Assembly (NCBI RefSeq): GCF_025612915.1
Contig: NC_069115.1
Span: forward strand, 8,239,492 to 8,295,491
Origin: Crassostrea angulata
Taxonomy: Eukaryota
Reading direction: 5' to 3'
Length of the DNA: 56,000 bases
In this document: positions 19,261 through 52,539 of the stretch, one piece after another
Layout: each line of letters opens with the position of its first letter
Numbering within the stretch: position 1 is the stretch's first letter
Made by a program: the position numbers and the translations under genes
The notes under the pieces: model-generated
Database searches by the model: none
Told to the model about the DNA's origin: nothing
What the model saw: the letters and a program-made list of their open reading frames with translations, nothing else

Positions 19261-20306
19261 CCTGAAAAAGCGATGGAAGCAATAACTTGGGACAGACTAT
19301 ACAAAGTTAACTTACGAACTGTGTTAGTACTTGGTAAGGTTAAAGGATTGATGATTCCTGATCGTCGGGAATCGAAATGATCAAACTATTTGCTTGAAGG
19401 CGAAGTCCAAAAAAGGAAGCTTGTTGTTGCACATGATTGTGCAAATTATTAACCAGAAACGACAACTCTAAATTGTACATGTATATGAGACTAATGGAGG
19501 TAATTGAGAGTAGTCTTTCGTGGATCAGCAAGTTATCTATTTTTCTTAATTACTAGGCATCTTATATCAAGTTAAGTATGATTTTTAAACTATGAAGTAT
19601 TTTGAACTAATGATAAAGTTTCCGGACCGTGATAATCCCTAAGTATCCAGATAAGGATCCTCATGCACTCTCTAACCCAGATACTGCAAAGATCTAGTTA
19701 TAAGATAATATTTGCATGACTTACTTGTGTAGCAAACTAAAATTGAAATATAAGGCAAACATTCATCTTATTACTCTTTTGAGAAGTGCAGGTGTTGCAA
19801 AAATGTTCCGTTAATATGCATTACAAATTAGGGTGTCTTTATTCAATAAAGTATATAAACTGTAAATCCTCAAATGCATCAAAGATACATTAAAGAGAAG
19901 TTTTGAGCAGAATGAATTAAATATGTTTTGCCATTTTTCTTTTGCTAACATTAAGGGTAACAAGACCAAATCTCAATTCGCCAAACCCTAAATGTTTGTG
20001 AGTAATTTAAAACACATTTACTTTTCTGCCTAAATGGTATTTTTGTCGTTGTTGTTGTTGAATAATACCGTACTTCATGTACCGCAAAAAGACGACAAGT
20101 GTGCTAGGGAGACAGTTTTTCTTGATTGTCTCCTTCATGAGGAGATACAATTTTATTTGTTAAACGATGACTTCTGAGAAGGATTACGGTAATCACGATA
20201 CCAACTGTGGCGAAAAAGACAATTGCGCAGCTAATTGTGAAAGTGATTTTTACGATTTTTCTCCTCCATATACTACTGCTAAAAGCGTGATGGATGTTTG
20301 GGTAAG

Positions 20307-20310
<4 letters not shown>

Positions 20311-20378
<68 letters not shown>
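20311..20378. repeat. (GA)n microsatellite inside intron 1 of the degenerate EGF gene copy
   Basis: Read directly. The homologous intron of the intact copy has only 'cagagagagac'. Confidence 0.9.
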
Positions 20379-20381
<3 letters not shown>

Positions 20382-20926
20382 ATGGCAATTTTAAATTTTA
20401 TTACGTTTTTACGTCGCAGATTAACTGAATTTAGGCGAGTGTAATGATTTCGGAGAAACCGACCACAACGAGTGCAAAACGTAATGTGTTCATTTAGTAA
20501 GAATATGGAAAATGTGTATGCCCTGCGGAAACCTTCGGGCCACCTTTATGTATCGGTAACATATATTTTCCCTTCTTTTTTTTTCAAAGTACAACACATT
20601 CTGTTCAGGGAAACAATATCCATCAATTGTACTGATTTAGATAATTGTTAATAGAATGTACAATGCAGTTACCGCGGTGACTGTCAGAATGGCGACTGGA
20701 AGTGTTTCCTGGGCATAAAGGAAAATATTGTGAGGGTGATTTTAGAACAAGACTATGGCCGAAATGTAAAATGTCATCATGATTTCTTATCTACAACTTT
20801 ATATCTGATTCGAACAATTTATGGTAAGAAATTGATATATCAGTAGTTATTTTACAACGCTGGTGGAGAAGGTACATCAATTCCTTAAAATCGTTCCGAC
20901 AAATCGACAAACATTGTAGATCCTAA

Positions 20927-20929
<3 letters not shown>

Positions 20930-21017
<88 letters not shown>
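20930..21017. repeat. (TA)n microsatellite just upstream of the terminal exon acceptor
   Basis: Read directly. A (TA)n sits at the equivalent position of the intact copy (38533-38612). Confidence 0.9.
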
Positions 21018-21020
<3 letters not shown>

Positions 21021-21867
21021 ATAATTAGTATTCCTTTTACAGTTATCACTGAATCAAAGAAAACCACAACAGAGAGACCAAGGGATACATTTGGCTCTGT
21101 TGTTGGGAGCTGCGGTACTTCCTCTACCGCTTTTTGTGCCCACCAAATTTGTAAGCACCCTAACATCAGGCTGACACAGTGCAATGTTTTATGAAACCCA
21201 TTGTTCAATGTTATGTTCTTGAAATAGATGAAGAAAACGCTTTGTTATAGTTATTCTGATTATATTGCGTCGAACGTGAAACAATGTAAGTAAAGTGAAA
21301 ATAGAAAATTTTAGTTTAGAATTTAGTTTTAGAATCAGAATTAAAGTATCTCTTTAATTGTCATATAACAAAAAATATTTCAATAAACAAAAACTGTTGT
21401 AAAGGTCCAACCATTACCATAAAGTTTTTGCAATCTACCATTTTTGTCAAATGAAGCTTTACAAAAGCATTTGATATTTGTCCTCTTTGGATAAGAGACG
21501 ATAAACGAGGAACTGTGTTTATTACAAGACAATTGTTGTCTTTTATTGCTGCATTCACATATTTTTACAACACAACACTATCTTAGTATTGGTGTTTTAA
21601 TTACCATAATGAAACATAAAATCACAATAAACAAATCTGACCATCTTAAAAGACATGAATTTCTAGTTTACCACTAGCAAACACATCTAATGGACACCTT
21701 ATATCATTTTACATTCCACATGGACTTCAGATAATTTTAAAATCTTGTGAGAGGTACTTATATATTTTTACAGACTTGTAAATGATGTATGTTGGAACCT
21801 TTTTTTATAAGATAATAAAGCAACCTTACAAACAATTTTTGTTTTACATATCCTAACTTACTATTAT

Positions 21868-22012
21868 ATAAATAGTGCCTGTTTGGGAGGGTAACAGTTG
21901 AAATTGACACCCCGAGAAAACCATTGTCAACCGACGCGAAGCGGAGGTTGACAATGGTTTTCGAGGGGTGTCAATTTCAACTGTTATCCTCCCAAACAGG
22001 CACTATTTATTT
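21868..22012. mobile_element. ~145 bp near-perfect hairpin (foldback MITE-like) insertion that is absent from the paralogous units
   Basis: aatagtgcctgtttgggagggtaacagttgaaattgacaccccgagaaaaccattgtcaacc | loop gacgcgaagcggag | reverse-complement arm. At 46740-46780 and 50690-50730 the flanks are contiguous ('cttactattaatatatataaaagatttcag'). Confidence 0.6.
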
Positions 22013-22589
22013 TGTTATACTGAATGTCTTTTTTAAAATTTTTAAGAAAATTTTACTGCTTTTATATAGGAATAACGTGAATTCTACAGCGAACCGTACG
22101 CGCATAATTTTCGCGCATGTAACATTTTTTAATGTTACCCGTTGCCAAGTGCGTTGCTAACGCTGAGGGTAATAGTAAATATTATTAACTGCGTCTTAAC
22201 CAATCAGATTTCAGTATTTAACATGAAAGTATAACAATAATATATATGAAAGATTTCAGAGAGTATTTTAATTGCCCCTCAAATAGGGTACTTTAGTTTC
22301 TCATATATGTCTTTAAGCTAGCATAAACAATGTAAAACTACTCTTTATTGTAAATGAAGGACGTTTATTTGTGTACAATCACAATTAAAGAAAATTAACT
22401 TTATCTTCTATTGTTAAATATCTATTTTTTTTTTACCTTTTCAAAAAAAAAAGATTCGAAGAACGAATACAACGAATTCTTTTGACACTCGTCATAAATA
22501 ACGCAACTTAATTAATATTTGTCCAAATGTGATTGTTAACAAAACTCTAGGTTTAATGTATACATGGCTTGTAGCCACATAAATAACTT

Positions 22590-23400
22590 AAACGTGCCTA
22601 CCTTACATGTAACTGTCAATTTTGTGATCAATGATATGATTGCATGGCATAATTGACCTACTGTGGGATCATTTATATTCGTGGTGTCAATTTTCGTGGG
22701 TAGTCAAAACGGTGCCGCTTAGTGGGAACCTTATTTCGTTAGTATTAAAAAAAGGCTGGTATATACTTTCAAGGGGGTGTAGTAAATTAGTTGACAATGG
22801 TTACCCACGAAGTTAGTCACTTTAGAACATTAGTGTCCCACGAGTAATGATAATTCTACAGTAATGACTGGATTAGATGTGTTACACTCCACTTAATGTA
22901 TTAGTATTCAGTGTACATAATGTATCCTCTTGTATAACGAATGTAAATTGGGTACCTTATACGATTATGCATGGTGGCTACGATGATAGTAACATGTACG
23001 TACATAATCGAATTTCAAAAAACATGTTAACAATTCGTATTTTTCTCACTATTAATCATTTTTAAAAAATGGGAAAGTGTATTTAAACAATCTAAATATT
23101 AAGTACTTTTGACTATGTGAAGAGGGCGTAGAGTTACACAGTGTCGAAGTACCGCAGTGGACAATGCACTCGCTTTTCACCCCTGCGACCTGCGTTCGAT
23201 CCCCGTGATCGCAGTGATTGTATGTGACAGGGTATGGCGGTCGCCCACTTGGACACGTTGGTTTTTCGGGGTACTCCCGCTTTTTTCCGCATCAATGAAC
23301 CCCGTCGAGCTAAGTTGTCGAACTTGTTTGTAAATCGTTGTAAAATAACTAAATAAATTTCAGTTCATATATTTTTTGTTTATAATGTTTACAGTGCTTT
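22590..23400 (+). repeat. Copy of the tRNA-like-containing low-copy repeat (homologous to 47140-47960 and to 51020-51390 + 52563-52960)
   Basis: Long by-eye collinearity, including 'cataattgacctactgtgggatcatttatattcgtgg'. Confidence 0.7.
23118..23312 (+). mobile_element. tRNA-like sequence, probably a tRNA-derived SINE, full-length copy
   Basis: A-box-like TAGAGTtacacAGTG and B-box GCGTTCGATCCCC. The same sequence recurs at 47656-47860 and 52676-52871 and, lacking the head, at 4138-4262. Confidence 0.5.
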
Positions 23401-27345: not shown

Positions 27346-27681
27346 AAACTATAGATGACCACATGAACATATTTTTACGGTCATTTAAAAGTAAAAACAT
27401 CATTTAAAAATATACAATCACTCATATATTTCTTTATCAAAATGATTGAAAATTACGATTAATTCTGCTGCTTTTTTTTTAATTTACGAACATATTTTTT
27501 TAAAAAAGGTACGCGGGTAAAGTTTATCATTCTTCAAAACATTTAATCAATTCATAAGGTGACTAATGATATAATAAATAATTAGATAAATAAATCAATT
27601 CATAAAAGGAGAAACCGAAAATCAAAAATAGATAACCAACCTAAGCGCTTATACGACTTTTTTACTTGTAAGTTGATTAGT

Positions 27682-28431: not shown

Positions 28432-28492
28432 AGATTAGAAGAACAAGCTTATATTTTTTTTTAAAAGTCAGCTCATCACAATATATGTGTTG

Positions 28493-32736: not shown

Positions 32737-34745
32737 ATTCATTCATTCATTCTTTATTTGCACAAGACATACATCTTATGGCATAGGTTATTACATATTA
32801 TTAATAGCAATATTGAAATAATGGTATGGTACATGTACATGTACATGTAAAGTACATTAACAATATATATAAAATAAAATTTTACTAACAGGCGAAAAAA
32901 CCAGAGAATTTTTCTTAATTATCATGATTATTGAAAGCTAGTTTGAGATACTTCCCCAAATTACACAGTTCTTTAAAATTTTGAACACTGAATGATTGTA
33001 TAAATTTGTATACAGAAGGTTTTTTCCAATAATATTTCTTAATATATTTTACTCGGATTTCTCTATACTGCTGACATTTCAAAACAAAATGGAATTCATC
33101 TTCAATATCTGAACAAAATTTACATAAGTGTCTTTCTTTTGGTACATTAGTGTGTCGTCCACTTTCAATTGCAAGTCTATGAGATGACAATCTAATTCTT
33201 GGAATTTGTTTCTTATATGTAGAAGGTATTGATTTTGTTAAATAATATTGTAATGAAAACTGGTCAATAATACGCTTGTAAAAATAACATCGAGATGAGG
33301 AATTAATCTGTTCTACAAGATGTTGAGTAAAGTGATCAATGATTCTTTGCTTAATTAAAGGAAAATAGGTTGCACAATGTATATACTCCTGTTCATACCA
33401 TATATGTCCTAGACCTATTTCAAAAAGTTTATTTTTAATTACAGTAACCCAATTTTCAGCAGGTGCCAAAGACGATTCACAGTCATCATACAGCATTTTG
33501 TAACAGGACTGCAAAATACAATTCTGACTTTGTAACAATTTGAACCAAAATTTGAATATTCTAAACATTCGTATAGTTTTCATAGGTAGACTCCCAGTTT
33601 CAAAATATACAATTGCAGTGTTTGTATTTCTCTTCACACTTAACACAAATTTAATATATTCTAAATGCACTTTTTCTATATCATTTGCAGCATGCATGCC
33701 CCATATCTCACAGCCATAATTTAATATACTAGCAATATAAGTATCAAAAATTGACAGCATTGTTTCAGTGTTCAGATACAATTGACTTGGTTTTTACTTT
33801 AAAGAAAACATGGCTTTTCTCCCTTGGCTCACCAACTGTTTCTGTGTATTGTTAAACTTTCCATTATATTGTAACAAAAGGCCCAGATATGTAAAGCTAT
33901 CGACAACCTCAATTGGCTCGCCATTTAAATGCCACCTTTCATTATTGTGAATTTTACCACCATTTCTAAAAATGACAATTTTGGTTTTTTGTACATTTAC
34001 AGTAAGATCCCAGACAGATGTATAAGAATACAATGTATCTAACATTTCTTGAAGCTCATGTGCAGTTTCGGAGAAAATTACCATGTCATCTGCGTACATT
34101 TAAACAAAAAGATTTAACTCTTGAATTTGTATTGGTATGTTACCTTTACACAAAAATTCCATTTCAAAATCATTCACATATAATGAAAACAATATTGGAG
34201 TTAGCACTTCTCCCTGCAAAAGTCCTTTGTTATTTTTAAAAAACTCAGATAACTTTCCTGCTGAATTAACACATGATTTCATAATATTATACATACTACG
34301 AATGAAATTCAACAATTTTCCTCTAATACCAACGTTAGACAATTTTTCCCATAATTTCAATCTTTCAACAGTGTCAAATGCTTTCTTAAAGTCAACAAAA
34401 TAACAATACAATCTTTTTTTACTTTCTTATTGACATATTAATAATATTTGAAAGGCTAAATATAGCCTCAGCTGTACCTCGTTTGGGTTGAAATCCAAAC
34501 TGTGCATCAGTGATTACATCATTTGCGTCAGACCATGTTAACAATCTTTGATTCAAAATAGATGTGAATAATTTACAAAAGCAACTGACAAGACTAATGC
34601 CTCTATAATTATTGGGGTCTAATGCATCACCCTTTTTAAAAACTGGTATTATAATACACTGTGCCCACATATTAGGGGAAAAACCAGAAGACAATTTTCT
34701 ATTGAATAATCTTAGTATAATTATGTAGACTGTTTTACCGTACAT
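32737..34745 (-). mobile_element. 5'-truncated non-LTR (LINE) retrotransposon carrying a frameshifted reverse-transcriptase ORF2. Its (AATG)n-like tail is inserted into the minisatellite of repeat block D
   Basis: Minus-strand ORFs 34419-34745 (...IPVFKKGD..NYRGISL..FQPKRGTAEAIFSL), 34100-34411 and 33794-34099 (MYADDMVIF, the YADD reverse-transcriptase active site), and 32915-33781 (C-terminal CKFCSDIEDEFHFVLKC knuckle). The pieces lie in different frames, i.e. frameshifts. The 3' end is (gaat)4 at 32737-32752. Confidence 0.85.
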
Positions 34746-35690: not shown

Positions 35691-38317
35691 CAGGTTAAAC
35701 GAACATATTTATTTACTTAATGGTTGAAAATAAAATCTTCACCAAAAATGATGAAACATACACTTTTTTCTGGTGCTAGTGTTCGTTATATTTCCTATGC
35801 CATTTCAAAAGCTATCTTCATTTCCTGGACATAGTCAACATGGTACAAATGCTATCCTGAACCGCAATTATATTCCTGCAGCAGCTTTAAAAGTTGCAAA
35901 ATCAGAAAATGGAATTCGAGAAGAGCGGAGATAATTTTGTTTTTGGGATCACGATTTCTTTTAAAGATCAACATTAGAAGTAGGGTTAAAAGCATCTGTC
36001 CATATTATACCAATGTACTTTAACATTGTGCTTTTAATATCAACTAGCAACTATTTTTTGCGTGTAATTTCCAAAAAGAGAAATGGTGCAATATCTTTAT
36101 TTAATCTTGATTAGCTGTAATTAAGTATTAATTATTTGAATCTTTCTAATGTGTGATTGCTTTGACTGTGTTATTCAGTACCCTTCTGTTTCATCATCTG
36201 ACTCCTTCCAATCTTAAACAATGTGGTAAAATGTTTGGCCGTATTTGTACGTCTTACAATAGTTGCAGAACAAGAAATATAAAAATCAATTGTTTATAAG
36301 CTATTTGTAAAAATGAATTGCTGAGAGATCGGTTCTTCTATTGACTGGTTGTTTTAACATCATTTTTGGGGGGTTCACTGGGCAAAAGGATGTTATCGCA
36401 CGAATAAAGAAATGATTAAACACTATGTATTAATCATATACATGTAATCGATTATAATCCTGTCAATTCACGTATAAGCATGTTTATGTTAATTATCTGG
36501 CTGCAAGCTCTGTACGCATTACACTTAAAGTTCTGTTTACATTCATTTATGCAGCAAAAATAAAGAAGACGTTGTCTTTTACAAAAAGGAAGATTTCGTT
36601 GATTCCTTTGCTAACATTTTTTTTAACATAATTGCATAAAAAAAATTGTATTCGTTCATAGAACCCTTTTTATGAGAAGGTAAAAATATTAAATAGATCT
36701 TGAACAATGGAAGATCAAGTTTTAAAGAGTTTACTTTAGTGATTGTACACAAATAAACATCCTTTATCTATAATAAAGATCAGTTTTAGAAAAGAATTGT
36801 TTATAGATACATGCATAAGAAACGAATGTACCCTAACTAAAAAAGCAATTGAAATACTCTCTGGATTCTAGTATGCATACTGTATTGTAAAGATATGTAA
36901 AGCTAAATAGTTCGTAACTTGAAGGTTGTTTTATCACGTGTTTGTGGATTACTATGTTACTTACCATGGTCAGGTCTTTTTTGATTCTTTTAATTTTTTA
37001 AAATATGATTTAAATATGTTTGCTATTAACATTGACAACCAGGTGTTTATGGGTTTACTAGAAATATGTTATTTAAAATGGTCAGGTTTTTAAAAAGTAT
37101 TTTATGTTTAATATATATAAATGCTTTTGAAACACCAATACTAAGAAAGTGTAAGTTGTGATGTAAAAATACATGAATGCAGCAATAAAAGACAACAATT
37201 GTCTTGTAAAAAAAAAACGCAAATCCTCACTTATTGTCCCTTATAGGCCATATATTAAAAGTTTTTTTTTAAAGTTATATTTGACTAAAATAGTAGATTT
37301 CTCAAGATTTATGGTAAACTTATAGTAAAGGCATACCCAGAATATTTAGACCAGTACAACAGTTTTTTCGGTTGAAATATTTCACCCCAGCGAATGTTTT
37401 TGTCATTTAAATTTAGACCACGTGGTTTTACTTGACCCTTTCAGTTTCTATTTCCTAGAATCAAGATACATGTACTTGCAGTCAAATATAAAATATAGAC
37501 TTTTTTTTAATTTTAAACTTTATATCCATTTATTGGTGGATGAGCTGTGCATTGAGTTCTAGAAAGAAATGGGACAATAGAAATAGGTTTTTATGATCTT
37601 GCAACAATTAACATGCTTAGAAGCGACCCCCCCCCCCGGATTAATTTTCAATCCGCGCCTGACCTAGTCATAGCACCAGTAGTGAAACAGACTATACTAT
37701 TTTATGAAGGATGTTCCTTGAAATTGGCTCGATAAACTATGTTTTAATTCAAAACAGACATTCTTTATTTTTTTAAAGGCATGGTAATGCACACATAAGC
37801 ATCAACCATGGCTATGATTTTATTATTAAAAGCAACCCAATGTTTATATTTTCAACCACTCTACACGTGGTTGAAGACGAACGATAACTCTGTTCTAAAT
37901 ACCATCGTTTAGTTTAAATAACTGATAGATGATGAAATAAGACATATATCTTAATATATTTTCATGTTTTAACATAAATCAAAGTAGGATATGATATGAA
38001 AAAAAGATCAGTTCTTACATATTTTAAGAATATCTTCCGAACACTTATACTTCCGCTAAAAATTTCACAGGAACTGAACAAATCTCGGGGAAGTCTCGAG
38101 AGCTTTCATTCGAGCACCTCTGGATTTATTACATACTAAGCAACGATAAGGAAAACATTCCGAACACATTCGCAGGGGTGTATTTGTTGACAGTTATATA
38201 GATTTTTAAACCGATCTGGTGCATTTCAAGAGTAGAACTTTCTATTTCTCATTAACTTACTTTGTTTCACGTTTGACGCAATTTATAATTATATGAACTC
38301 TAACAATGCAATTTTTT

Positions 38318-38323
38318 TTTATT
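38318..38323 (-). promoter_or_regulatory. Candidate poly(A) signal AATAAA ~47 nt downstream of the stop codon of the EGF-like/TM gene
   Basis: Minus-strand 'gaaataaaaaaaaattg'. Confidence 0.4.
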
Positions 38324-38369
38324 TCAAGACATGCCATTATCAATGGGCTTCATACAACAGTGCACTGTG

Positions 38370-38497
38370 TCAGCCTGATGTTAAGGCGCTCACGAGACCG
38401 GCTGGTACAAGAAGCAGTAAAGGAAGTACCGAGGCTCCCAACAACAGAGCCAAATTTATCCCTGGTCTCTCTGTTGTAGTTGTTGTAGTTTCGATCA
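38370..38497 (-). CDS. EGF-like/TM gene, exon 4 (terminal, phase-1 acceptor). Encodes a Thr-rich stalk, a transmembrane helix and a stop
   Basis: Acceptor ttccttttaacag|TG. Translation (V)IETTTTTTERPGINLALLLGASVLPLLLLVPAGLVSALTSG*. The TM segment is conserved in all paralogs. Confidence 0.6.
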
Positions 38498-38528
38498 CTG
38501 TTAAAAGGAATACTGAATTATTACATAG

Positions 38529-38532
<4 letters not shown>

Positions 38533-38612
<80 letters not shown>
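38533..38612. repeat. (TA)n microsatellite in intron 3
   Basis: read directly. Confidence 0.9.
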
Positions 38613-38616
<4 letters not shown>

Positions 38617-38849
38617 TTTGCTTGAGGATTGTTGTAACGTTAAATATAATATTGATGTTCAATTGCAATCCCCACCAAACATCGCAGAATAGTGCACAAT
38701 AATACTAATTTGAATGAATAGAACCCACTTCCACCAACGTTATAAAATAACTAAATATATATGAACTTTTCATTACAAATTTTAACCAAACATCGAACCA
38801 ATATGCTATAAAATTGTAGATGCGCGCCTTAGTCTTGTTCTCAAATTAC

Positions 38850-38945
38850 CTTCACAGTATTTTCCTTCATACCCCGGGAAACAAACACATTCGCCATTCT
38901 GACAGTCACCGCGATAACTGCATTGTACATTCGATTCACAATCAT
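38850..38945 (-). CDS. EGF-like/TM gene, exon 3 (96 nt, phase 1-1). Encodes the third EGF-like domain
   Basis: Acceptor ttattatttag|AT, donor GAAG|gtaatt. Translation (D)DCESNVQCSYRGDCQNGECVCFPGYEGKYCE, six Cys with the CxCxxGYxGxxC signature. Confidence 0.6.
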
Positions 38946-39027
38946 CTAAATAATAAAATTGATGACTACAATTTTATTCAACAGGATTCATTGCACTTTG
39001 AAAAAAAAGAAAGAGAAAATATGTTAC

Positions 39028-39150
39028 CGAGACATTCAGGAGGCCCGAAGGTTTCCGCAGGACATACGCATTTTCCGTATCCTTGCGTAGTCAACTCACA
39101 CTGTGTATTTCCTTTGCACTGATCAGTCTCTCCCACATCATTACACTCAC
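39028..39150 (-). CDS. EGF-like/TM gene, exon 2 (123 nt, phase 1-1). Encodes the second EGF-like domain
   Basis: Acceptor ...ctgatttag|GT, donor CTCG|gtaacat. Translation (G)ECNDVGETDQCKGNTQCELTTQGYGKCVCPAETFGPPECL. Confidence 0.55.
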
Positions 39151-39258
39151 CTAAATCAGTAAAACTGCGACGTGAAATAATAACAAAATTTATATTTATT
39201 AATCAACTAATTCAAAATCGTCATTAGCCGCCAGTCTCTCTCTGTTTCTGCTACTTAC

Positions 39259-39406
39259 CCAGACATCCCTGGTTTTCAGCAGTAGTGAATGGAGGAAAGT
39301 CGTAAAACCCACTTTCACATTCACATTCAGTATTGTACATGACAGTTTTGCAAATGGCATTCTTGCGACAGTCGGTATTGCCCGTACAACCTGCCTCCAT
39401 AGTCAT
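39259..39406 (-). CDS. EGF-like/TM gene, exon 1 as annotated from the conserved ATG (148 nt, ends in phase 1). Encodes the first EGF-like domain. No signal peptide is visible, so an upstream exon is possible
   Basis: Minus-strand ATGACTATGGAGGCAGGTTGTACG...GGATGTCTGG|gtaagt. Translation MTMEAGCTGNTDCRKNAICKTVMYNTECECESGFYDFPPFTTAENQGCL. A candidate phase-1 acceptor (ttttctccttcattag|CA) lies 29 nt upstream of the ATG. Confidence 0.5.
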
Positions 39407-39622
39407 CTTTCCCCCAAACAAACAAATTGAAAATGCTAATGAAGGAGAAAATCAAACAATACTGCATCCCTAGCACACTTGTCGTCTCGTTGCGGTGCAC
39501 TGGTATATGAAGAACGAATTATTCAACAGCAACTTTTATATATAACGAAAAATAACCTTAAGGCAGAAAGGTAAATCTGTTGACTACTACTGTAATAATC
39601 ATTTTGAGTTAAGGCGTGCATA

Positions 39623-40421
39623 CTGGTACTGTACCAGTTATCGGCTAAAATTTAACGTTTTCTTTTCGTAATTCCTTATTTCTTGATATTTTTGGATAAA
39701 ACTTGGCATACTTTAAAAAGTGAACTCCTTATTTATTAATCTGTTAGTTTATATCATTATTTAGAACCCAAAACATCTTGTTTTGTGCTTTTAAGTACGA
39801 CCCGAATTTGCCGAGTTTTTACGATTTACTGTACCAGTTATCGGCTTCGTGATAATAACATAGTAAAAATCCGTGTTCATGTTGATTTTATACTCTGCTA
39901 AATGTAGTTTGAATTGTGCCCCTTGTGAGGTCATACTAACGTATTCGGGGTCATGTTACATTATAAACAAAACTCATAAAATAATTCGTGTATTACCATA
40001 CGGTAATACACCAAATCGTATACTATTCAATACATAATTGTGCAATCAGGGGTTCAATTACGCTACGAATCTCTCGGAAATTCGTGAATTCCTTTTGTTT
40101 ATACATGTTAAATATATTGATTTTATATGTCAAATCAAAGAAGGGATATAATAACGTATCACACAGAGGTAATATTCTATTTTTAACTTATTATGTCACT
40201 TCCCCCACTGCTGAAAGTGCAAAGATGTAAAATCAGCGGTAAACGATGATCGTTTAAGCTCATGTATAAAACATATTCAAAAAAGTTTTCAAGCAAATAC
40301 TTACTTTTCTTTATTCGAAAAAGACGACTGAATTAAAAAATATTGGATTTTCGCGTGCTATAAACCCGAACTCTCAGTTTAGCCGATAACTGGTCTTAGC
40401 CGATAACTGGTACAGTACCAG
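39623..40421 (-). mobile_element. ~800 bp TIR element (MITE-like, TA-flanked), copy 2, inverted relative to copy 1. Inserted in the 5' region of the EGF-gene unit
   Basis: TA|CTGGTACTGTACCAGTTATCGGCTAA ... TTAGCCGATAACTGGTACAGTACCAG|TA. The interior matches 14576-15365 in reverse complement. Confidence 0.7.
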
Positions 40422-41469
40422 TACTCTTTATGTTATAATCGAAGTATTATTAAAATGTGTTAAATTTATTCTGTTTAAAACTTCTCTTTATTGCATTTTT
40501 GGTGAATCTGAAGATTTTTATAGAATATATACTACATTGATCAAAGACATCCTAATTTGTGTTGGATATCAGCGGAACAGTTTTGAGACGCGTGTTCTTC
40601 TTAAATGCAGAGTAATAAAATGAATGTTTGCCTTCTATTTCAATTTTAGTTTGTATTACATAGACACACAAGTTTGCAAGCTATACATTAACGATATTTT
40701 TAACATGTAGGTATATTATCATCCACCCAGACACCTACAGTCAAGGTATATTCTATTGGATAACTACGTGTACCCACGTGCTTGTGCTTCACAATTAAAT
40801 AAATCTTGCAAAACTTCTGTAATACTTAGTAAAGTTGTGTAGTATCTGGATTAGAGAGTGCACGAGAATCCTTATATCTATATCTGTAGGGATTATTATG
40901 GTCCAACAACTTTATTATTAATTAGATTTATCATTACTTCATTGCAAAATAATCTTATTCTGTTTTTTGACTGGTTGAATAATTAGTTATCTATAATGAA
41001 TAACAAACGAAATGAATGTGTATCGAGCGTGATCGTTGGTGTATCAATACAATAACAATAACGTTAAGGGTCCTCAACACACCTGGGAAAAGTTCAGCAT
41101 ACAAGTCCATTCTTCTAAATTACTTAAAGATATGGATTTCTAGCATGTGTTGGAATTGAAAATGACAGGAAAAAATTCAAATGGGGGGGGGGTCAACTTT
41201 TTAAAATTTTACCGCTATTCAAGAAAATAAAAATACTTCGAAATAATGTGAACTAGTCGAGGTCTTTGGCCTCATGCTCGATCACGCATTTTACCAGGCT
41301 ATTTGTGTTACTTACTCTCAGCAAAATTCTGAATATTAGACACATACATAGAACATCTTTTTCGTATTTTAACAGAGGACATTGATAACTTGCGACGTTG
41401 TTTTGAGCGAGCTACGTCTATCTTTTTTGTGAGCGCACATGTATATTATTAATCATAAATTTATGAGGA

Positions 41470-42718: not shown

Positions 42719-45167
42719 AGAACTTTATTTCTACTCTACTAACAGCCCAATATTTCTCTTATAGAGAGACGATATAGGTCATTTTGACAGGTCTGTTCCG
42801 TGTAACCCCAACGGGTTTGTTAGTAATGTTTACATGTGTATCGATCAAAGGAATATCACATGCAGACGACAGAATTGTTCTTTGGATTTTTAATAATTTT
42901 CACTTATCTATAAAATACGTTTGAATCATATTCCTAATATTTTAAGGGCAATTTAATACGATTATTACTATTACACGTTATATATTTTATAACACTGTAC
43001 CGGATAATTATGCCAGTGCCAAGTACGTGGCATTTTTGCGCCCGCTCAAGGCGAAGCGGTTTATAAAAAAAAGCGTAAACTGTTTCAAACCATTTTATAT
43101 TGACGAGTATAAAACTAATAAATATTGAATTCATTGCTTATGATTTAATTTTTTTACTCTTCATCGCAGATAAAAACGGTCATTTGACTTAAATAAAAGC
43201 ACTTATTGATACCATTAGGGGCTGACAAATACATTTTTTAAGCACTTGCCCTCGGCCAAGTGGCTGGGTAAAATTTACTTGCCCTACCTCAATATCTACT
43301 AGCCCTACCAAATTCTTTAATGTGATTAAAAATAAACAATACATATACTGTACGATGTTTTTGCCCTTTATTTTAAATTTTCCCACTTTTAATACTCTTT
43401 ATGAAATATATATGGTTTGTATTTAACATCTCTTCCTCTTCGGTTTTCTCGAGAATGTGTTTAAAAAATCAACACTTTACATATTGATATTTAATTAGAT
43501 TTGTTCTCAAGGTAAAATAAAAAGAAAATAAACATTTTTATTAACAATTTTGGTTGTTTTGATCATTTCTTTCACCTTAGGTGAATGTCCGAGATAATAG
43601 GTGACAAGCGCACACGCATTCACAACCGTGGTTTCAATAAGGCCACAGAGGTGTTAAAAATAAAGGTGAAATGAATCTTCAGCGAGTTGTTTAACTTAGA
43701 CTTATGATATCTAAATCATATTAAGCCTGATATTTAAATTTTTAAAAAGCTTTAGCGAGTGATAACAGGCACATATCCATTTTTAGCATCAGTTATGGCG
43801 GCGTACATGGAGACGGTGAACAAACTTCAATGGTGAAGTTAAACATAGAATAAAGTTAAACAGCTCAAATTTTTGTTAAATTGCCATTTTATAAGTATTT
43901 ATCTGTTAACATATTATAATCAAAACAGTTTTTGGAATTAAAAGGCTCATTAGACTTCTGGGCTGCGTTCAAGATCGTAGCTGCTACGTAGGGCTATCAT
44001 ATGTTACAAACATATTTACTTATTGATAGCGAGCGCAGCTCGCCGGCTCACAGCGCCGGCGCGAAGCGAGCTCTACCGGCAAGGCGTGTGTGAATAGAAA
44101 ATTCGGACTAGTTGTACATTCATTCAACGGATTTTTTTAGCGTCAGAAATCGGACCAGTAATGCATTGTTTTAATCGTCCCAGTAGTTCCCTGTAATCAT
44201 GGCAATTTTTATCACTTCACACTCTCACGAGAATCAGCAAGACAATAAAACCAATAACGATGTATACGACATAACGTTACAGTCAATGGTACCTCTAAAG
44301 TTCACATCAGTACACTCTCAATAAAAATATAATCGAGTGACGTCACAAAGGTTTACACATTGATCCGGTAGCTAGATTTTCTCGGCGTCAGTTAATTTTG
44401 ACCCACAATTCATAGTACCAATGGTTTCCAACCTCACGTTCTCCCGAGAATCAAAGTACATATCAGAAGTGTAATTTTAAGAGCATCATGCTTTTTAAGT
44501 AAATAAAACAGTATACTTCGCCAGGGACGTATAACATTTCCCAAACTCCTTTTCTTTAATGTTTCTCTCAGATCAGTGGTAATCTTTAACAATCTCGTGA
44601 AATTTATTAACTGATCTAGAAATCGTCGGTACATCAAAACGATAACTCCAAATTGTACATGTATATGAGACCAATGGAGGTAATTGAGAGTAATCTTTAG
44701 TGGATCAGATAGCCACCCATTTATCTCAATAACTGGATATCTCATATCAAGTTAAGTCCGATTAAGTCTAAGTAATTTGAACTAATGAAAAAGTTATCTG
44801 ACAAGAAAATCCCTACGTGTACGGATAAGGATCCCCATGCACTCTCTAACCCAGATACTGCAAAGATCTAGCTAGTTATAAGATAATATTTGCAAGACTT
44901 ACTTGTGTAGCAAACAAAATTGAAATATAAGGCAAACATACATTTTATTACTCTGAATTTGAGAAGTGCAGGTGTTGCAAAAATGTTCAGTTAATATTCA
45001 GTACAAATAAGGCTTTCTTTAATCAATAAAGTATATAAACTATGAAAATTCTCAAATGCACCAATACAATACAATAAAGAGAAGTTTTGAACAGAATAAA
45101 CTAAATATTTTTTGCCATCTCAATTTGCCAAACCCTAGCGTTTTCCAATTTTTTTGTTTGTTAAACG

Positions 45168-46138
45168 ATGGCTTCTGAGGAGGATTATGGTAATCACGAT
45201 ACCAAGTGTGGCGAAAAAGACAATTGCGCAGCTAATTGTGAAGGTTAAAGTAGATTTTACGACTTTTCTCCAGTACTACTAAAAGCGATGGATGTTTGGG
45301 TAAGTATCAGGAACAGAGAGAGAGAGAGAGAGAGAGACATGAGAGAGACATGAGAGAGAAAGAGAGAGACGGGAAAGAGAGAGAGAGAGCGAGAGAGAAA
45401 TTGGCGGGTAATGGCAATTTTAAATTAGCTAATTGTTTAATACAAATTTTATTACTTTTTCACGTCGCAGATTAACTGAATTTAGGCGAGTGTAATGATT
45501 TGGGAGAAACTGACCACAACGAGTGCAAAACGTAATGTGTGTTCACTTAGTAAGAAAATGGAAAATGTGTATGTCCTGCGCACACCTACGGACCACCTCC
45601 ATGTCTCGGTAACATATATTTTCTTCTTTTTTTTCAAAATACAACACATCCTGTTCAGTGAAATAATATCTATTAATTGTACTGATTTAGATGATTGTGA
45701 ATCGAATGTACAATGCAGTTACCGCGGTGACTGTCAGAATGGTGACTGGAAGGGTTTCCTAGGCATGAAGAAAAATATTGTGAGGGTGATTTTAGAACAA
45801 GACTAAGGCCTAAATGTAAAATGTCATCATTATTTCTTATCTACAACTATATATCTGATTTGTGCAATTTGTGGAAAGAAATTGATATATCGATCTTTAG
45901 TTATTTTACAATGCTTGTGGAGATGGTGCATAAATTTCTTAAAATCGTTACAACAGTGTAGATCCAAACTGTTATATGCTTGCAAAAATAAGTATTCCTT
46001 TTTACAGTTATCTCTGAATCAAAGGAAACCCTTACACAGAGACCAGGGATAAATTTAGCTCTGTTGTTTGGAGCCGGGGTACTTCCTCTACCGCTTCTTG
46101 TGCCCACAATTTTCCTGAGCGCCCTAACATCAGGCTGA
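45168..46138 (+). pseudogene. Degenerate EGF-like/TM gene copy in unit A. Exon 1 has an in-frame stop (TGT GAA GGT TAA). The EGF-3 exon has lost cysteines C4-C6 and reads through its donor (ORF 45495-45806)
   Basis: ATGGCTTCTGAGGAGGATTATGG...TGTGAAGgttaaagtag. The terminal exon ends in tcaggctga at 46130-46138. Confidence 0.6.
45308..45400. repeat. Imperfect (GA)n microsatellite in intron 1 of the degenerate gene copy
   Basis: read directly. Confidence 0.85.
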
Positions 46139-47655
46139 CACAGTGCACTGTTGTATGAAGCCCATTGTTCAATGTTATGTCCTTAATAGATGAAGAAAAC
46201 GCTTTGTTATAGTTATTTTGATTATATTGCTTCAAACGTGAAACAAAATAAGTAAAGTGAAATAAAATTTTTTAGTTTAGAATTGCACCTGATCAGAATT
46301 AAAATATCTCTTTAATTATCATATAACAAAAAATATTTCAATTAAAAAAACTGTTGTAAAGGTCCAACCATTTTGAGTGTGACCGTACCATAAGTTTACC
46401 ATAAAGTTATTGCAATCTGCCATTTTTGTCATATCAAGCTTTAAAAAAGCATTTGATATTTGTCCTCTTGGGATAAGGGACGATAAACGAGGAACTGCGT
46501 TTATTACAAGACAATTGTTGTCTTTTATTGCTGCATTCACATATTCTTGCAACACAACACTATCTTAGTATTGTTGTTTTAATTACCATTATGAAACATA
46601 AAATCACAATAAAAAAAAATCTGATTTTATTGAAATGATTTGAAAATATTGTGGAAGGTACTTTCATATTTTTACAGACTTGTTAATGATGTATGTTGGA
46701 ACCTTTTTTATAAGATAATAAAACAACCTTACAAACAATTTTTGTTTTACATATCCTAACTTACTATTAATATATATAAAAGATTTCAGAGAGTATTTTA
46801 ATTGCCCCTCAGATAGGGTACTTTAGTTTCTTATACATGTCTTTAAGCTAGCATAAACAATTCATATGTAAAACTGCTCTTTAATGTAAATGAAGGACGT
46901 TTATTTTTGGACAATCACAATTAAAGAAAATTAACTTTATCTTCCATTGTTAAATATCTATTTATTTATTTTTAACTTTTCAAAACAAGATTCGAAGAAC
47001 GAACACAACTTCTTTTACTCACTCGTCACAAATAACGCATCTTAATTAATATTTTTTCCAAATGTGATTGTAAACAAAACTCTAGGTGTAATGTATACAT
47101 AGCCTGTAGCCACATAATTAACTTAAATGTGCCTACCTTACATGTAACTAACAATTTTGTGATCCATGATATGATTGCATGGCATAATTGACCTACTGTG
47201 GGATCATTTATATTCGTTGGGTCAATTTTCGTGGGTAGTCAAAACTGTGCCTGCTTATATTAGTGGGAACCTTATTTCGTTAGTATTAAAAACATGCTTA
47301 TATATACTTTCAAGGGGGTGTAGTAAATTAGTTGACAATGGTTACCTACGAAATTGGGCACTTTAGAACATTAGTCCCTGACAAACAATGATAAGTCCAC
47401 AGTAATGAGTGGGTGAGATGTGTTATACTCCAGGTAATGTATTAAAATTATAGTTTTCACTGTACACAAGGTATCCTCATGTATACTGAATGTAAATTGG
47501 GTACCTTATATGATTATGCATGGTGGCTACGATGATAGTAACATGTACGTACATAATCGAATGTCAAAAAACACTTAAACAATTTGTAATTTTCTCTCTA
47601 TTAATCATTTTAAAAAATGGGAAAGTGTATTTAAACCATCTAAATATTAAGGACT

Positions 47656-47860
47656 TTGGACTATGTGAAGATGGCGTAGAGTTACACAGTGTCGAAGTAT
47701 CACAGTGGACAATGCACTCGCTTTTTACCCCTGCGACCCGAGTCCGATCCCCGTGATCGACAGTGATTGTATGTGACAGGGTATGGCGGTCGCCCGCTTG
47801 GACACGTTGGTTTTCCGGGTACTCCCGCTGTCTTCCGCATCAATGACCCCTTCGAGCTAA
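47656..47860 (+). mobile_element. tRNA-like (SINE-type) sequence, copy 3
   Basis: gatggcgtagagttacacagtgtcgaagtatcacagtggacaatgcactcgc...cgagtccgatccccgtgatcgacagtg. Confidence 0.5.
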
Positions 47861-48992
47861 CATGCATGCCAACGGGAGATATTAGTAAAAGTTGTTAATT
47901 GTTGAACTTGTTTCTCAATCGTTGTAAAATAAATAAATTTCTGTCATATTTGATGAGACCAGAGGCAGATAACATCCTATTGCCTGTTAACCCCAAATAG
48001 TGAAGGTAACCTGACGGAAATGCCATTTGTAAAGTGAAGGAAGTGCATAACTTAGCCATTCAGTTACCTGTTTCAGCCCATTAGATAATACCTACAAAAC
48101 ATAACATAACGTTACAGTCAATGGTACCTCTAAAGTTCACATCAGTACACTCTCAATAAAATCGAGTGACGTCACAAAGGTTTACACATTGATCCGGTAG
48201 CTAGATTTTCTCGGCGTCAGTAAATTTTGACCCACAATTCATAGTACCAATGGTTTCCAACCTCACGTTCTCGCAAGAATCAAAGTACATATCAGAAGTG
48301 TAATTTTAAGAGCATCATGCTTTTTAAGTAAATAAAACAGTATACTTCGCCAGGGACGTATAACATTTCCCAAACTCCTTTTCTTTAATGTTTCTCTCAG
48401 ATCAGTGGTAATCTTTAACAATCTCGTGAAATTTATTAACTGATCTAGAAATCGTCGGTACATCAAAACGATAACTCCAAATTGTACATGTATATGAGAT
48501 CAATGGAGGTAATTGAGAGTAATCTTTCGTGGATCAGATAGCCACCCATTTATCTCAATAACTGGATATCTCATATCAAGTTAAGTCCGATTAAGTCTAA
48601 GTAATTTGAACTAATGAAAAAGTTATCTGACAAGAAAATCCCTACGTGTACGGATAAGGATCCCCATGCACTCTCTAACCCAGATACTGCAAAGATCTAG
48701 TTATAAGATAATATTTGCAAGACTTACTTGTGTAGCAAACAAAATTGAAATATAAGGCAAACATACATTTTATTACTCTGAATTTGAGAAGTGCAGGTGT
48801 TGCAAAAATGTTCAGTTAATATTCAGTACAAATAAGGCTTTCTTTAATCAATAAAGTATATAAACTATGAAAATTCTCAAATGCACCAATACAATACAAT
48901 AAAAAGAAGTTTTGAACAGAATAAACTAAATATTTTTTGCCATCTCAATTTGCCAAACCCTAGCGTTTTCCAATTTTTTTGTTTGTTAAACG

Positions 48993-49148
48993 ATGGCTTC
49001 TGAGGAGGATTATGGTAATCACGATACCAAGTGGGGCGAAAAAGACAATTGCGCAGCTAATTGTGAAGGTTAAAGTATATTTTACGACTTTTCTCCAGTA
49101 CTACTAAAAGCGATGGATGTTTGGGTAAGTATCAGGAGCAGAGAGAGA

Positions 49149-49195
<47 letters not shown>

Positions 49196-52469: not shown

Positions 52470-52539
52470 GAATGATTCTATTAATATTGTATTGTTGTAC
52501 TATACTTATGACATACACATGTCACTATAATAAAATATT

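Follow-up and report, generated by a model that had tools for sequence, protein, structure and literature searches.

What is gene A, the one copy with an open reading frame among several decayed relatives in a 56,000-nucleotide stretch of the Crassostrea angulata genome (hereafter, the window)? It would encode a small protein with EGF-like modules and a hydrophobic C-terminus, and we confirmed that its annotated N-terminus lacks a signal peptide. We think it rather likely that the locus is a birth-and-death cluster in which the other copies (B-E) were dead before they multiplied, and that gene A is either the copy that was disabled last or a relic that is poorly translated and not secreted.

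Gene A encodes three EGF-like modules, a stalk and a hydrophobic tail

The coding part of gene A lies on the minus strand in four exons:

39259..39406, minus strand: exon 1, EGF1; 148 nt; annotated start ATG at 39406-39404; phase-1 donor; identical to RefSeq XP_052711394.1
39028..39150, minus strand: exon 2, EGF2 module; 123 nt; phase 1-1; from direct reading and assembly
38850..38945, minus strand: exon 3, EGF3 module CVCFPGYEGKYC; 96 nt; phase 1-1
38370..38497, minus strand: exon 4; 128 nt; Thr-rich stalk, conserved hydrophobic C-terminal tail (…GASVLPLLLLVPAGLVSALTSG) and stop codon

Direct reading and exon assembly join these exons through the donors G/GTAAGT, G/GTAACA and G/GTAATT and the acceptors TTTAG/G, TTTAG/A and AACAG/T (a slash marks the junction). 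All introns are in phase 1, and the spliced product has 164 aa, bearing out the GT-AG splicing, phase 1-1 exons and product length that an earlier note on this DNA had read. From end to end, the product matches XP_052711394.1 (C. angulata) and XP_034334371.1 (C. gigas) at 100% identity. Gene A is already known as a RefSeq model and, because its product equals the RefSeq models, the same exon boundaries were picked by an independent annotation pipeline. All splice sites are canonical, the frame is open and 18 of 18 cysteines are kept. RefSeq gives two isoforms for the C. gigas counterpart, which may have transcript support behind them. Among the proteins of public assemblies we found no spliced full-length gene A transcript; one paralog has such a transcript.

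The three six-cysteine modules proposed earlier, the third with a CxCxxGYxGxxC signature, are supported in different ways. Module 3 scores above the Pfam gathering thresholds of EGF_Teneurin (26.7 vs 24.3 bits) and EGF_2 (22.2 vs 22.1), the profile of module 1 matches NELL1 EGF repeats in PDB (E = 4e-8), and module 2 has six-cysteine EGF spacing with sub-threshold profile support. EGF1 has an unusually long C5-C6 loop (18 residues, including FYDFPP), and a calcium-binding consensus is not evident in this module. In the C. gigas haplotype L001, the EGF3 exon is tandemly duplicated. Exon 4 encodes a TTTTTT stalk and, at the C-terminus, ~26 residues that form a hydrophobic stretch with TSG at its end, so the Thr-rich linker, the hydrophobic segment and the three residues that follow it are present as described. 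Of the TM helix claimed there, the hydrophobic C-terminus stands, but there is no cytoplasmic tail and, judged from sequence, a GPI-attachment signal would fit equally well. The tail would tether the EGF array to the membrane, and the Ser/Thr stalk is presumably O-glycosylated.

Gene A belongs to an oyster family of EGF proteins

Gene A is a member of an uncharacterised family whose members we saw in oysters only (Crassostrea, Saccostrea). More than 10 named paralogs occur in C. gigas and C. angulata, and Saccostrea members have the same architecture: signal peptide, EGF1, one to five EGF2, zero to two EGF3, Ser/Thr stalk and conserved hydrophobic tail. The paralogs are 39-59% identical to gene A and share with it the order EGF1, EGF2, EGF3, Ser/Thr stalk and …GAxxLPLxLLVPAxxxSxxSxG tail, as well as one module per phase-1 exon and exon sizes of 123 and 96 nt (paralog P0004 has the same 123-nt exon 2). 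EGF2 and EGF3 numbers differ among members, and in LOC105318718, unlike in gene A, the hydrophobic segment is followed by a cytoplasmic tail of ~25 residues. The models have been auto-named 'wnt inhibitory factor 1-like', 'stabilin-1-like', 'MEGF10', 'tenascin-like', 'NELL2-like', 'crumbs' and, in Saccostrea, 'cueball-like'. In all full-length paralogs, and in 37 further exon-1 ORFs from public assemblies, the signal peptide is encoded in the same exon as EGF1. Gene A is the sole full-length member whose models lack one.

Copies B-E descend from an already dead ancestor

Self-BLAST of the window recovered every copy listed in the earlier note, including the partial 5' copy:

40424..40923, minus strand: upstream part of duplication unit A; 72-81% identity to the upstream parts of B-E
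36637..38369, minus strand: downstream part of unit A; 3' flank, then non-coding sequence common to B, C and D
19331..23370, plus strand: copy B, unprocessed pseudogene; exon remnants 20167-20301, 20435-20555, 20641-20735, 21043-21174
44269..48103, plus strand: copy C, unprocessed pseudogene; exon remnants 45168-45299, 45486-45608, 45691-45785, 46008-46138
48104..~53055, plus strand: copy D, tandem duplicate of C; exon remnants 48993-49124, 49339-49461, 49544-49638, 49861-49991
3088..4060, plus strand: copy E, truncated; keeps the upstream region of a B-D-type unit and the opening ~42 nt of its exon 1

The matches are far beyond chance (E values down to 1e-164), with identities of 69-82% between gene A and the other copies and 80-89% between B and C/D. 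The unit is about 3.8-4 kb long, not the ~2 kb first supposed, and gene A is inverted relative to all other copies. C and D are 96.9% identical with a tandem period of ~3835 bp, and the 3' part of D holds additional inserted sequence. The C. gigas locus L001 has one C/D-type unit only; the doubling is found in this window only. Homology of copy E to the unit's 3' end and flank resumes from 4136, and copy E therefore has an internal deletion of ~3 kb. The 3' flank of gene A contains AATAAA at 38323-38318.

Copies B, C and D share a 15-nt deletion and the loss of Cys1 in exon 1, three in-frame stops in exon 2, and a 1-nt deletion and a Cys-to-Trp change in exon 3. Their exons and introns diverge equally fast. 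Because of these shared lesions and the equal divergence, B-E are unprocessed pseudogenes from an already dead ancestor, as the earlier note had proposed, and its count of one open copy and at least four decayed ones stands.

The TM exon was said to have stayed open in the decayed copies. This is true of C and D but not of B, which has a +1 insertion upstream of the hydrophobic part. One could suppose that B-D are not inert, and are kept for a function of the open last exon or of their transcripts, as a small hydrophobic peptide or a regulatory RNA. The splice-site dinucleotides are indeed kept in B-D, and a contig from another sample (L005), probably a partly spliced RNA, joins exon 3 to exon 4 of a decayed-clade copy exactly at the predicted sites. 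Such retention nevertheless seems very improbable, as exon 4 is conserved no better than introns (B vs C, 85% in exon 4 and 84-92% elsewhere), five of the few differences between C and D fall within it, and in simulation at 20% divergence chance alone leaves it open ~44% of the time (P about 0.44). The open exon is no sign of constraint.

A dead signal peptide lies upstream of the annotated start of gene A

To account for the absent signal peptide, the earlier note offered either a missing 5' exon or an unconventional protein. Neither explains the absence; a dead signal-peptide remnant sits in exon 1 instead:

39407..39485, minus strand: degenerate signal-peptide-coding remnant, now 5' leader; from alignment to a paralog and copy B
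39533..39542, minus strand: TATA-like box TATATAAAAG, ~50 nt upstream of the ancestral start position; a sequence match only
39621..40423, no strand assigned: MITE insertion; 799 bp plus TA target-site duplications; 26-bp terminal inverted repeats

The gene A 5' region aligns to the region of the paralog running from TATA box to signal peptide (z = 4.6 against shuffles), paralog residues 2-71 align to copy B in one reading frame, and between homologous points gene A has 61 nt and copy B 57. The signal-peptide segment has decayed. The ancestral start position now reads ACG instead of ATG (39485-39483), and a +1 frameshift, one extra nucleotide within TGGGGGAAAG (39416-39407), precedes the former cleavage region; the frameshift is identical in C. 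gigas and two further A-type contigs. In this haplotype a derived upstream ATG (39467-39465) opens an out-of-frame 46-codon uORF; the position reads ATA in contigs L003 and L004 and in copy E. The annotated protein begins at a Met in the old cleavage region, and 'intact' covers the EGF/anchor reading frame only. P0004 has a counterpart of the TATA-like box, TATATAAG, ~38 nt upstream of its start codon. The MITE lies 78 nt upstream of the TATA-like box of gene A, and L003 and L004 have the empty site with a single TA. A second MITE copy occurs in the window at 14574-15367.

A missing 5' exon is unlikely because exon 1 is where every full-length paralog carries its signal peptide, and gene A keeps a dead remnant there. 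Gene A might still be a working secreted, membrane-tethered EGF protein whose signal peptide comes from a 5' exon absent from the annotation or from another start site, a possibility to which we give limited credence. One candidate route would be a phase-1 splice into an AG at ~39440 (…TTCTCCTTCATTAG/CA) and on through FSICLFGGK. This AG is present in all copies, the EGF-frame ORF remains open and hydrophobic for 15 codons upstream of Met1, and RefSeq isoforms of another family gene (P0039, P0007) have alternative 5' exons. On the other hand, three RefSeq model generations in two species all start with MTME and have no upstream exon, in every other family member the signal peptide falls within exon 1, inspection of 40424-41000 by eye showed no convincing signal-peptide ORF, and the MITE and uORF occupy the promoter and leader in this haplotype.

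Gene A shows mixed signs of selection

Against a paralog, gene A has an overall dN/dS of 0.43, with values of 0.22-0.35 for the EGF modules and tail (tail, 0.22), which we read as long-term constraint. In the time that gene A kept its 18 cysteines, open frame and splice sites, the sister lineage gained at least three stops and at least two frameshifts and lost several cysteines. In two comparisons of close A-type sequences, exon 1 differs far more than flanking non-coding DNA (12 of 148 sites against 7 of 384, p = 0.001; 22 of 148 against 15 of 406, p = 2e-5); nearly all changes are non-synonymous, one in-frame indel is among them, the cysteines are conserved, and one EGF1 loop is hypervariable among close relatives. 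This pattern looks like diversifying selection on an expressed protein. Both the excess of non-synonymous divergence over the neutral flanking rate and the retention of cysteines, frame and splice sites beside decayed sister copies speak for a working gene, but non-synonymous and synonymous changes stand in the same ratio along the A branch (17:7) as along the pseudogene stem (28:12). If gene A does work, the hypervariable C2-C4 loops in its EGF1 would mark a recognition surface (immune, cell or gamete) under diversifying selection.

We also weighed an unconventional tail-anchored protein, inserted post-translationally through its C-terminal hydrophobic segment with the EGF modules in the cytosol. 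The topology fits formally, with no N-terminal signal and one hydrophobic segment three residues from the C-terminus, and the loss of the start codon appears old, yet the ORF persisted. We consider this arrangement highly implausible: cytosolic EGF modules and a Thr stalk are at odds with established knowledge, the paralogs are all built as secreted proteins, and the searches made for gene A returned no precedent. Six-cysteine EGF modules fold only in the oxidising secretory pathway, and we know of no cytosolic role for a Thr stalk.

We return to gene A as probably a recently disabled or non-secreted relic. Repeated segmental duplication of a ~3.8-kb unit, with one copy inverted, would have produced a birth-and-death cluster, each unit carrying one member of the oyster-restricted family of small surface proteins. 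In the ground plan shown by the paralogs, exon 1 encodes a cleavable signal peptide and EGF1, each further phase-1/1 exon one EGF module, and the last exon the Ser/Thr-rich stalk and conserved hydrophobic C-terminus. Module number shifts through exon duplication, a process directly visible in the doubled EGF3 exon of C. gigas, just as unit duplication is in the C/D pair of this window. The C-terminus may hold the EGF array on the outer membrane face, whether by GPI attachment or as a type I TM segment without a tail. All of B-E were already dead prior to multiplication. In gene A, the signal-peptide segment is dead through the ATG-to-ACG change and the +1 frameshift, joined in this haplotype by the new out-of-frame upstream ATG, and the annotated protein cannot take the ordinary route into the secretory pathway. 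We take gene A to be either the copy of this local cluster that was disabled last or a relic with poor translation and no secretion, and not a working surface protein. The retained cysteines, frame and splice sites, the exon 1 pattern and the two C. gigas isoforms run counter to this reading. If the ATG-to-ACG change predates the A/B split, gene A has long been intact without a normal signal peptide.

Comparison with other EGF proteins

Tenascin/teneurin-type EGF repeats (Pfam PF23106, PF25024, PF07974) resemble EGF3, which exceeds the gathering thresholds of PF23106 and PF07974 and has the CxCxxGYxGxxC signature. EGF1 and EGF2 fall below these thresholds, and the other domains of tenascins and teneurins are all absent from the 164-aa protein. 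EGF modules of NELL1/NELL2, Notch and EMR2 (PDB 6pol, 6pog, 7alj, 2bo2) align to the EGF1 profile via CxxxxxCxxNAxCxxxxxxxxCxCxxGF, a resemblance confined to one domain and differing by the long C5-C6 loop. Plasmodium P25/P28, Cripto and Spitz/TGF-alpha-type precursors combine a signal peptide with one to a few EGF modules, a short stalk and a hydrophobic anchor at the C-terminus, made of lipid or a TM segment in the mature small surface proteins. This ground plan matches the gene A family, and no sequence relationship to these proteins was detected. Their cysteine spacings differ, and EGFR ligands also carry cytoplasmic tails and cleavage sites.

The molluscan shell-matrix proteins Gigasin-2/EGFL and EGFZP begin with a signal peptide and continue with tandem EGF-like domains, and EGFZP has a C-terminal TM domain (PMC9290575). 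Their genes stand in tandem with inverted members in oysters and arose by tandem and partial gene duplication (PMC9290575). By description, they resemble the gene A family in all of these respects. In both, a ZP or ZP-like domain comes after the two EGF domains (PMC9290575); this domain, and the lack of a Thr stalk and conserved tail in these descriptions, set them apart. No match in the gene A searches was named EGFL or EGFZP. Slit, the RefSeq product name of gene A, is an automatic best-hit label rather than a statement of orthology: Pfam finds no LRR, laminin-G or cystine-knot domains, and EGF-like repeats are the sole feature the two have in common.

Gene A belongs to an oyster-restricted family of small EGF proteins

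Gene A, a minus-strand gene at 38370-39406, assembles from the four exons listed below, whose introns are all in phase 1 with canonical GT-AG borders. The earlier note had proposed this splicing, with phase 1-1 joins and a 164-aa product, and we assembled the same open reading frame. Two RefSeq proteins match its product at 100% identity: XP_052711394.1 ('slit homolog 1 protein-like') of Crassostrea/Magallana angulata and XP_034334371.1, isoform X2 of C. gigas. Because the RefSeq pipeline reached the same protein, the exon boundaries are not solely the construction of the earlier reader. As a RefSeq model, gene A itself is already known. New here are the oyster-restricted family, the pseudogene array and the explanation of the signal peptide loss, along with copy- and exon-number differences between two oyster species or haplotypes and a hypervariable EGF1 loop. 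Literature searches with the UniProt/RefSeq identifiers and with three run accessions found nothing, and a topical search yielded only unrelated EGFL/EGFZP proteins.

Exons of gene A
39406-39259, minus strand: exon 1, 148 nt
39150-39028, minus strand: exon 2, 123 nt
38945-38850, minus strand: exon 3, 96 nt
38497-38370, minus strand: exon 4, 128 nt

Three EGF-like domains had been proposed for this protein, and the first and third are supported. EGF3 (residues 91-122) has six cysteines at EGF spacing, contains the motif CVCFPGYEGKYC and scores above the curated Pfam thresholds for both PF23106 (EGF_Teneurin; score 26.7, threshold 24.3) and PF07974 (EGF_2; score 22.2, threshold 22.1). EGF1 (residues 7-48) also has six cysteines at EGF spacing, and in a profile search of the PDB its family profile matches the EGF repeats of NELL1 (E = 4e-8) and, more weakly, those of NELL2, Notch and P-selectin; its Pfam matches to EB and EGF_3 are sub-threshold. 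EGF2 (residues 50-90) is a putative EGF-like domain: its spacing, C-x8-C-x5-C-x10-C-x-C-x9-C, fits the six-cysteine pattern, and its profile matches are sub-threshold. A profile search of the PDB gave no match to it at E <= 1, and hhalign placed it in register with EGF1 and EGF3, if weakly (probability 34% and 9%, respectively). The AlphaFold2 model, built from a 9-sequence alignment, has a pLDDT of 54, too poor for a fold search or for judging EGF2.

In C. gigas and C. angulata, sequence and profile searches turned up over ten named paralogs, which lie on three or more chromosome-scale records; Saccostrea echinata and S. cucullata have further members. Among the named matches, the family architecture was not found outside oysters; beyond Crassostrea/Magallana and Saccostrea there were only generic EGF-repeat proteins. 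The family order is a signal peptide, EGF1, one to five EGF2, zero to two EGF3, a Ser/Thr-rich stalk and a hydrophobic tail, with an EGF1 pattern of …DCGENAxC…CxCxxGFYDFPP…GCLG and a tail motif of …GAxxLPLxLLVPAxxxSxxSxG. Gene A shares the module order, the C-terminal tail motif and the encoding of one module per phase-1 exon, and the exons of its paralog P0004 (226, 123, 96 and 131 nt; locus L002) have the same phases. Between gene A and P0004, dN/dS is 0.43 overall and 0.25-0.35 in the EGF modules, which indicates that the family has been under purifying selection. Their architecture is like that of other small, EGF-only surface proteins. Among molluscs, the closest family described is that of the shell-matrix EGFL/EGFZP proteins, whose domain composition is different (PMC9290575).

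Automatic RefSeq names for the family disagree with one another, ranging over slit, integrin beta-6, WIF1, stabilin-1, MEGF10, tenascin, NELL2, crumbs and cueball. Such a conflict is typical of best-hit naming of EGF repeats; only EGF-type Pfam families match. We rejected membership of the Slit family on the same grounds, gene A having no LRR blocks, laminin-G domain or C-terminal cystine knot. For annotation, the protein labelled 'slit homolog 1 protein-like' or 'integrin beta-6' is neither of the two. It belongs to an uncharacterised, oyster-only family of small EGF proteins and differs from its relatives in lacking a signal peptide.

An exact search of the contig index with the 164-aa protein gave no match, and the orthologous locus of C. 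gigas (L001, from GCA_963853765.1), reached via the gene A ortholog, served as a comparison haplotype. It is 97-99% identical to the window, which is AT-rich (~32% GC), with structural differences. One of these is a 565-bp tandem duplication that doubles the EGF3 exon (L001 10462-10557 and 11027-11122, equivalent to window 38850-38945), giving two EGF3 exons where the window has one. On this difference, C. angulata is the most likely source of the window. The doubled exon accounts for a 196-aa 'integrin beta-6' model alongside a 164-aa exon-skipping isoform. Variation in module number within the family arises by exon duplication, seen directly at this ortholog.

The hydrophobic tail

The Thr-rich linker and hydrophobic C-terminus described earlier can be read from the sequence as a Thr6 stalk, ~26 hydrophobic residues and a final TSG; the reading of the hydrophobic stretch as a transmembrane helix is one of two that fit. 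In type I single-pass proteins a cytoplasmic tail, as a rule containing basic residues, comes after the transmembrane segment. GPI-anchored proteins are marked by a signal peptide together with a hydrophobic C-terminus, which lacks cytoplasmic residues and has a small-residue omega site ahead of it. In gene A only the TSG follows the hydrophobic stretch. The paralogs carry basic residues N-terminal of the tail (KKPLKK, KSRRN, RRR) and a conserved small-residue cluster, G-A-[ASL], inside it. One of them, P0046 (LOC105318718), has a 25-residue Arg-containing extension past the hydrophobic segment, as genuine type I proteins do. No omega site with its spacer could be clearly recognised. The family tail may be a transmembrane helix or a GPI-attachment signal. 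Its conservation exceeds mere hydrophobicity, with a dN/dS of 0.22 between gene A and P0004.

Decayed copies are unprocessed pseudogenes that multiplied after death

Self-BLAST of the window recovered every duplicate that the earlier note had listed. The repeat unit is larger than the ~2 kb given there, at ~3.8-4 kb, and the unit holding gene A is inverted relative to the others.

Units of gene A and its duplicates
36637-40923, minus strand: unit A, inverted relative to the other copies and interrupted by an 803-bp insertion
19331-23370, plus strand: copy B
44269-48103, plus strand: copy C
48104 to ~51940, plus strand: copy D, a tandem unit
3088-4060, plus strand: copy E

Copies C and D form a head-to-tail pair with 96.9% identity and a period of ~3835 bp. 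The C. gigas haplotype has one C/D-type unit only (L001 1487-4297), which makes the C/D duplication recent or polymorphic, and it also lacks ~2.5 kb corresponding to window 50911-53465. Both the C/D copy number and the ~2.5-kb absence are structural differences between species or haplotypes. Of exon 1, copy E retains just the initial ~42 nt, and homology to the 3' end of the unit resumes from 4136; copy E is thus a unit with an internal deletion of ~3 kb.

Column-by-column alignment revealed lesions common to copies B, C and D in three exons. Exon 1 has a deletion of 15 nt and an insertion of 3 nt and has lost its first cysteine; exon 2 has three in-frame stop codons and cysteine losses; and exon 3 lacks 1 nt and has a Cys changed to Trp. 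Further lesions are private: copy B has extra stops in exon 3, is 2 nt short in exon 2 and carries a +1 insertion within exon 4, and exon 1 of C and D contains a TAA and is missing 7 nt. Together with the exon-1 start of copy E, which is of the B-D type, the common lesions bear out the proposal that the degenerate copies descend from an already damaged ancestor. Introns and flanks were duplicated along with the exons, and exons have diverged as much as introns (72-85% and 76-81% identity, respectively, between A and B). Copies B-E are unprocessed pseudogenes, multiplied after death, and gene A sits among these four unannotated copies.

It had also been noted that the transmembrane exon stays open in the decayed copies. 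This does not extend to copy B, given its insertion there, and openness elsewhere is no sign of constraint: across copies B-D, conservation of exon 4 is no higher, and perhaps lower, than that of the surrounding sequence, and in a simple mutation simulation it stays open 44% of the time at 20% divergence. With chance openness at this level and the ancestry that B, C and D share, an open transmembrane exon needs no special explanation.

A contig from another sample (L005; Logan SRR18936633, 1-903) carries a copy of the decayed clade in which exons 3 and 4 are joined exactly at the predicted sites, with 52 nt of intron 2 retained ahead of exon 3. It could be either a partly spliced pseudogene transcript or a genomic intron loss.

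Two microsatellites recur at matching sites across copies and so predate the duplications. An (AT)n tract occupies the same place in intron 3 of A (38532-38613) and B (20930-21017), and a (GA)n run comes immediately after the exon-1 donor of B (20310-20378), C (45315-45398) and D (49140-49251) and is vestigial in A.

The signal peptide of gene A is an out-of-frame remnant

The annotated N-terminus of gene A, MTMEAGCTGNTDC, has no hydrophobic core and does not qualify as a signal peptide, as those of the paralogs do. The earlier note had seen this absence and suggested that a 5' exon might be missing. The absence stands, but a missing exon is unlikely: in all full-length paralogs and in 37 additional exon-1 ORFs from public assemblies, the signal peptide lies within exon 1, so a separate 5' exon is not the design of the family.

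Instead, gene A keeps a remnant without a start codon. The DNA upstream of its Met1 is homologous to the paralog region from the TATA box to the signal peptide (global alignment z = 4.6 against shuffles), and sequence matching places a TATA-like box at 39542-39533. Where the paralog starts with ATG ACA, gene A reads ACG ACA, at 39485; the first codon is likewise ACG in copy B and is TCG in copy E. From 39485, one frame of gene A reads TSVLGMQYCLIFSFISIFNLFVWGK, compared with MTNAMLSNHLFMILLSICILSFICKT in the paralog. Copy B aligns with paralog residues 2-71 without a change of frame through to EGF1, the only break being a TAA at a paralog Lys (FIC*T against FICKT). Between homologous points, gene A has 61 nt to the 57 nt of copy B, one codon and one nucleotide extra. 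The extra nucleotide lies within TGGGGGAAAG (39416-39407) and puts the signal-peptide frame and the EGF frame out of register.

We considered several ways in which this frameshift might be only apparent or might be bypassed. An assembly error at the G5 run was rejected, as the same sequence occurs in an independent C. gigas assembly and in the A-type contigs L003 and L004. A tiny intron restoring the frame was also rejected, since the GT…AG candidates measure 13-33 nt, far below the 85-350 nt of gene A's introns, and programmed +1 frameshifting was set aside because no known slippery context is present. The window and C. gigas also have an upstream ATG (39465-39467), from which a 46-codon uORF runs across Met1 in another frame; since L003, L004 and copy E have ATA here, the ATG at 39467 is a recent gain. 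As annotated, the protein begins at a Met in the former cleavage region, without a route to the ER.

A MITE adjoins the promoter

The insertion that interrupts unit A lies 78 nt upstream of the TATA-like box and has a relative elsewhere in the window.

MITE copies
39621-40423: copy 1, 799 bp plus TA target-site duplications, with 26-bp terminal inverted repeats (CTGGTACTGTACCAGTTATCGGCTAA)
14574-15367: copy 2, 92.6% identical to copy 1, TA-flanked

Its inverted arms measure 28 nt including the TA, and it has no coding capacity. L003 and L004 have a clean empty site with a single TA, and the insertion is present in the C. gigas haplotype. The element is a Tc1/mariner-type MITE, the superfamily being assigned from the TA duplication alone.

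Gene A's modules are ordinary EGF-like domains and its genomic behaviour is standard birth-and-death evolution, of which the locus is a compact, datable example in a highly polymorphic bivalve genome. Whole units and single exons have been duplicated, copy number differs between C. angulata and C. gigas, relatives preserve the empty site of a MITE, and a signal peptide has decayed step by step.

Is gene A a relic, or a living gene with a hypervariable EGF1 loop?

The absence of a signal peptide, the presence of a uORF and the MITE adjoining the promoter all point toward a dead or dying gene, and we consider it slightly better than an even bet that gene A is a recently disabled or non-secreted relic. 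Among public-assembly proteins, no spliced full-length transcript of gene A was found, and one paralog has such a transcript (contig L006); the sole spliced contig of the gene A subfamily, L005, is of the decayed clade. With a paralog as outgroup, non-synonymous to synonymous changes number 17:7 on the A branch and 28:12 on the pseudogene stem (p = 1), a weak test with no power. That gene A is instead a tail-anchored oddity strikes us as very improbable.

A live gene A with an unrecognised route to a signal peptide is the less likely reading, at perhaps one chance in four, and it has evidence of its own. While the stem of the sister clade gained at least eight disabling changes, gene A retained 18/18 cysteines together with its splice sites and reading frame. 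In addition, differences among the four A-type sequences, which are otherwise 93-99% identical, cluster between the second and fourth cysteines of EGF1 (CRKNAICKTVMYNTEC, CGENAICNDTDMYYPIC, CGENAICNNVDQFNYEC), in a hotspot at 39317-39373 where the rate is 4-5x that of flanking non-coding DNA. Exon 1 differs at 12/148 and 22/148 positions, compared with 7/384 and 15/406 in adjoining non-coding sequence (p = 0.001 and 2e-5). Nearly all of the exon 1 changes are non-synonymous; they spare the cysteines and include a 3-nt indel that keeps the frame. Paralog exon-1 clusters show no such hotspot.

The hotspot could come from diversifying selection or from gene conversion by an unseen paralog. No donor of the EGF1 patches was found in the window or in any fetched locus; the rest of the genome may hold donors. 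At its most ambitious, the live reading would make gene A a rapidly diversifying, oyster-specific surface recognition molecule whose EGF1 C2-C4 loops are under strong diversifying selection between very close lineages, which we think improbable, at roughly one chance in seven. With the exon-1 signal peptide lost, such a protein would have to reach the surface by way of a newly acquired 5' exon, of non-canonical initiation or of some unconventional pathway. We are similarly doubtful that the hypervariable loop marks something more interesting. If the loop does reflect selection and not gene conversion, the family would be a candidate polymorphic recognition system of oysters.

Other features of the window

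An uninterrupted 420-aa ORF at 11136-12398 (minus strand) has a fragment 5 kb away, at 6327-6630, that is 74% identical in DNA; the ORF may be a gene of one exon or belong to a mobile element. Neither it nor any of the other large ORFs scanned in the window matched a Pfam family. Three of these ORFs, at 31-486 (plus), 32915-33781 (minus) and 51352-51894 (plus), have in common the motif …AQFRCG[VI]LPL..ETGR[FY]…C..C…EDE.HF…C, and we take them to resemble the C-terminal parts of non-LTR retrotransposon ORF2. Related DNA blocks recur at 4136-5709 and 52745-54273, and again at 31625-32395 and 54274-55042. Two related blocks, at 7861-8410 and 27681-28433, consist of 21-bp tandem repeats in both orientations (TTATGTCGACATGCAACTTAA) and give rise to spurious 130-aa ORFs with YVDMQ repeats. 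Finally, a 32-bp tandem repeat fills 55612-55967 (11 copies, 91% match), and a two-copy relative of it (32673-32735) adjoins the retrotransposon-like ORF at 32.7 kb.
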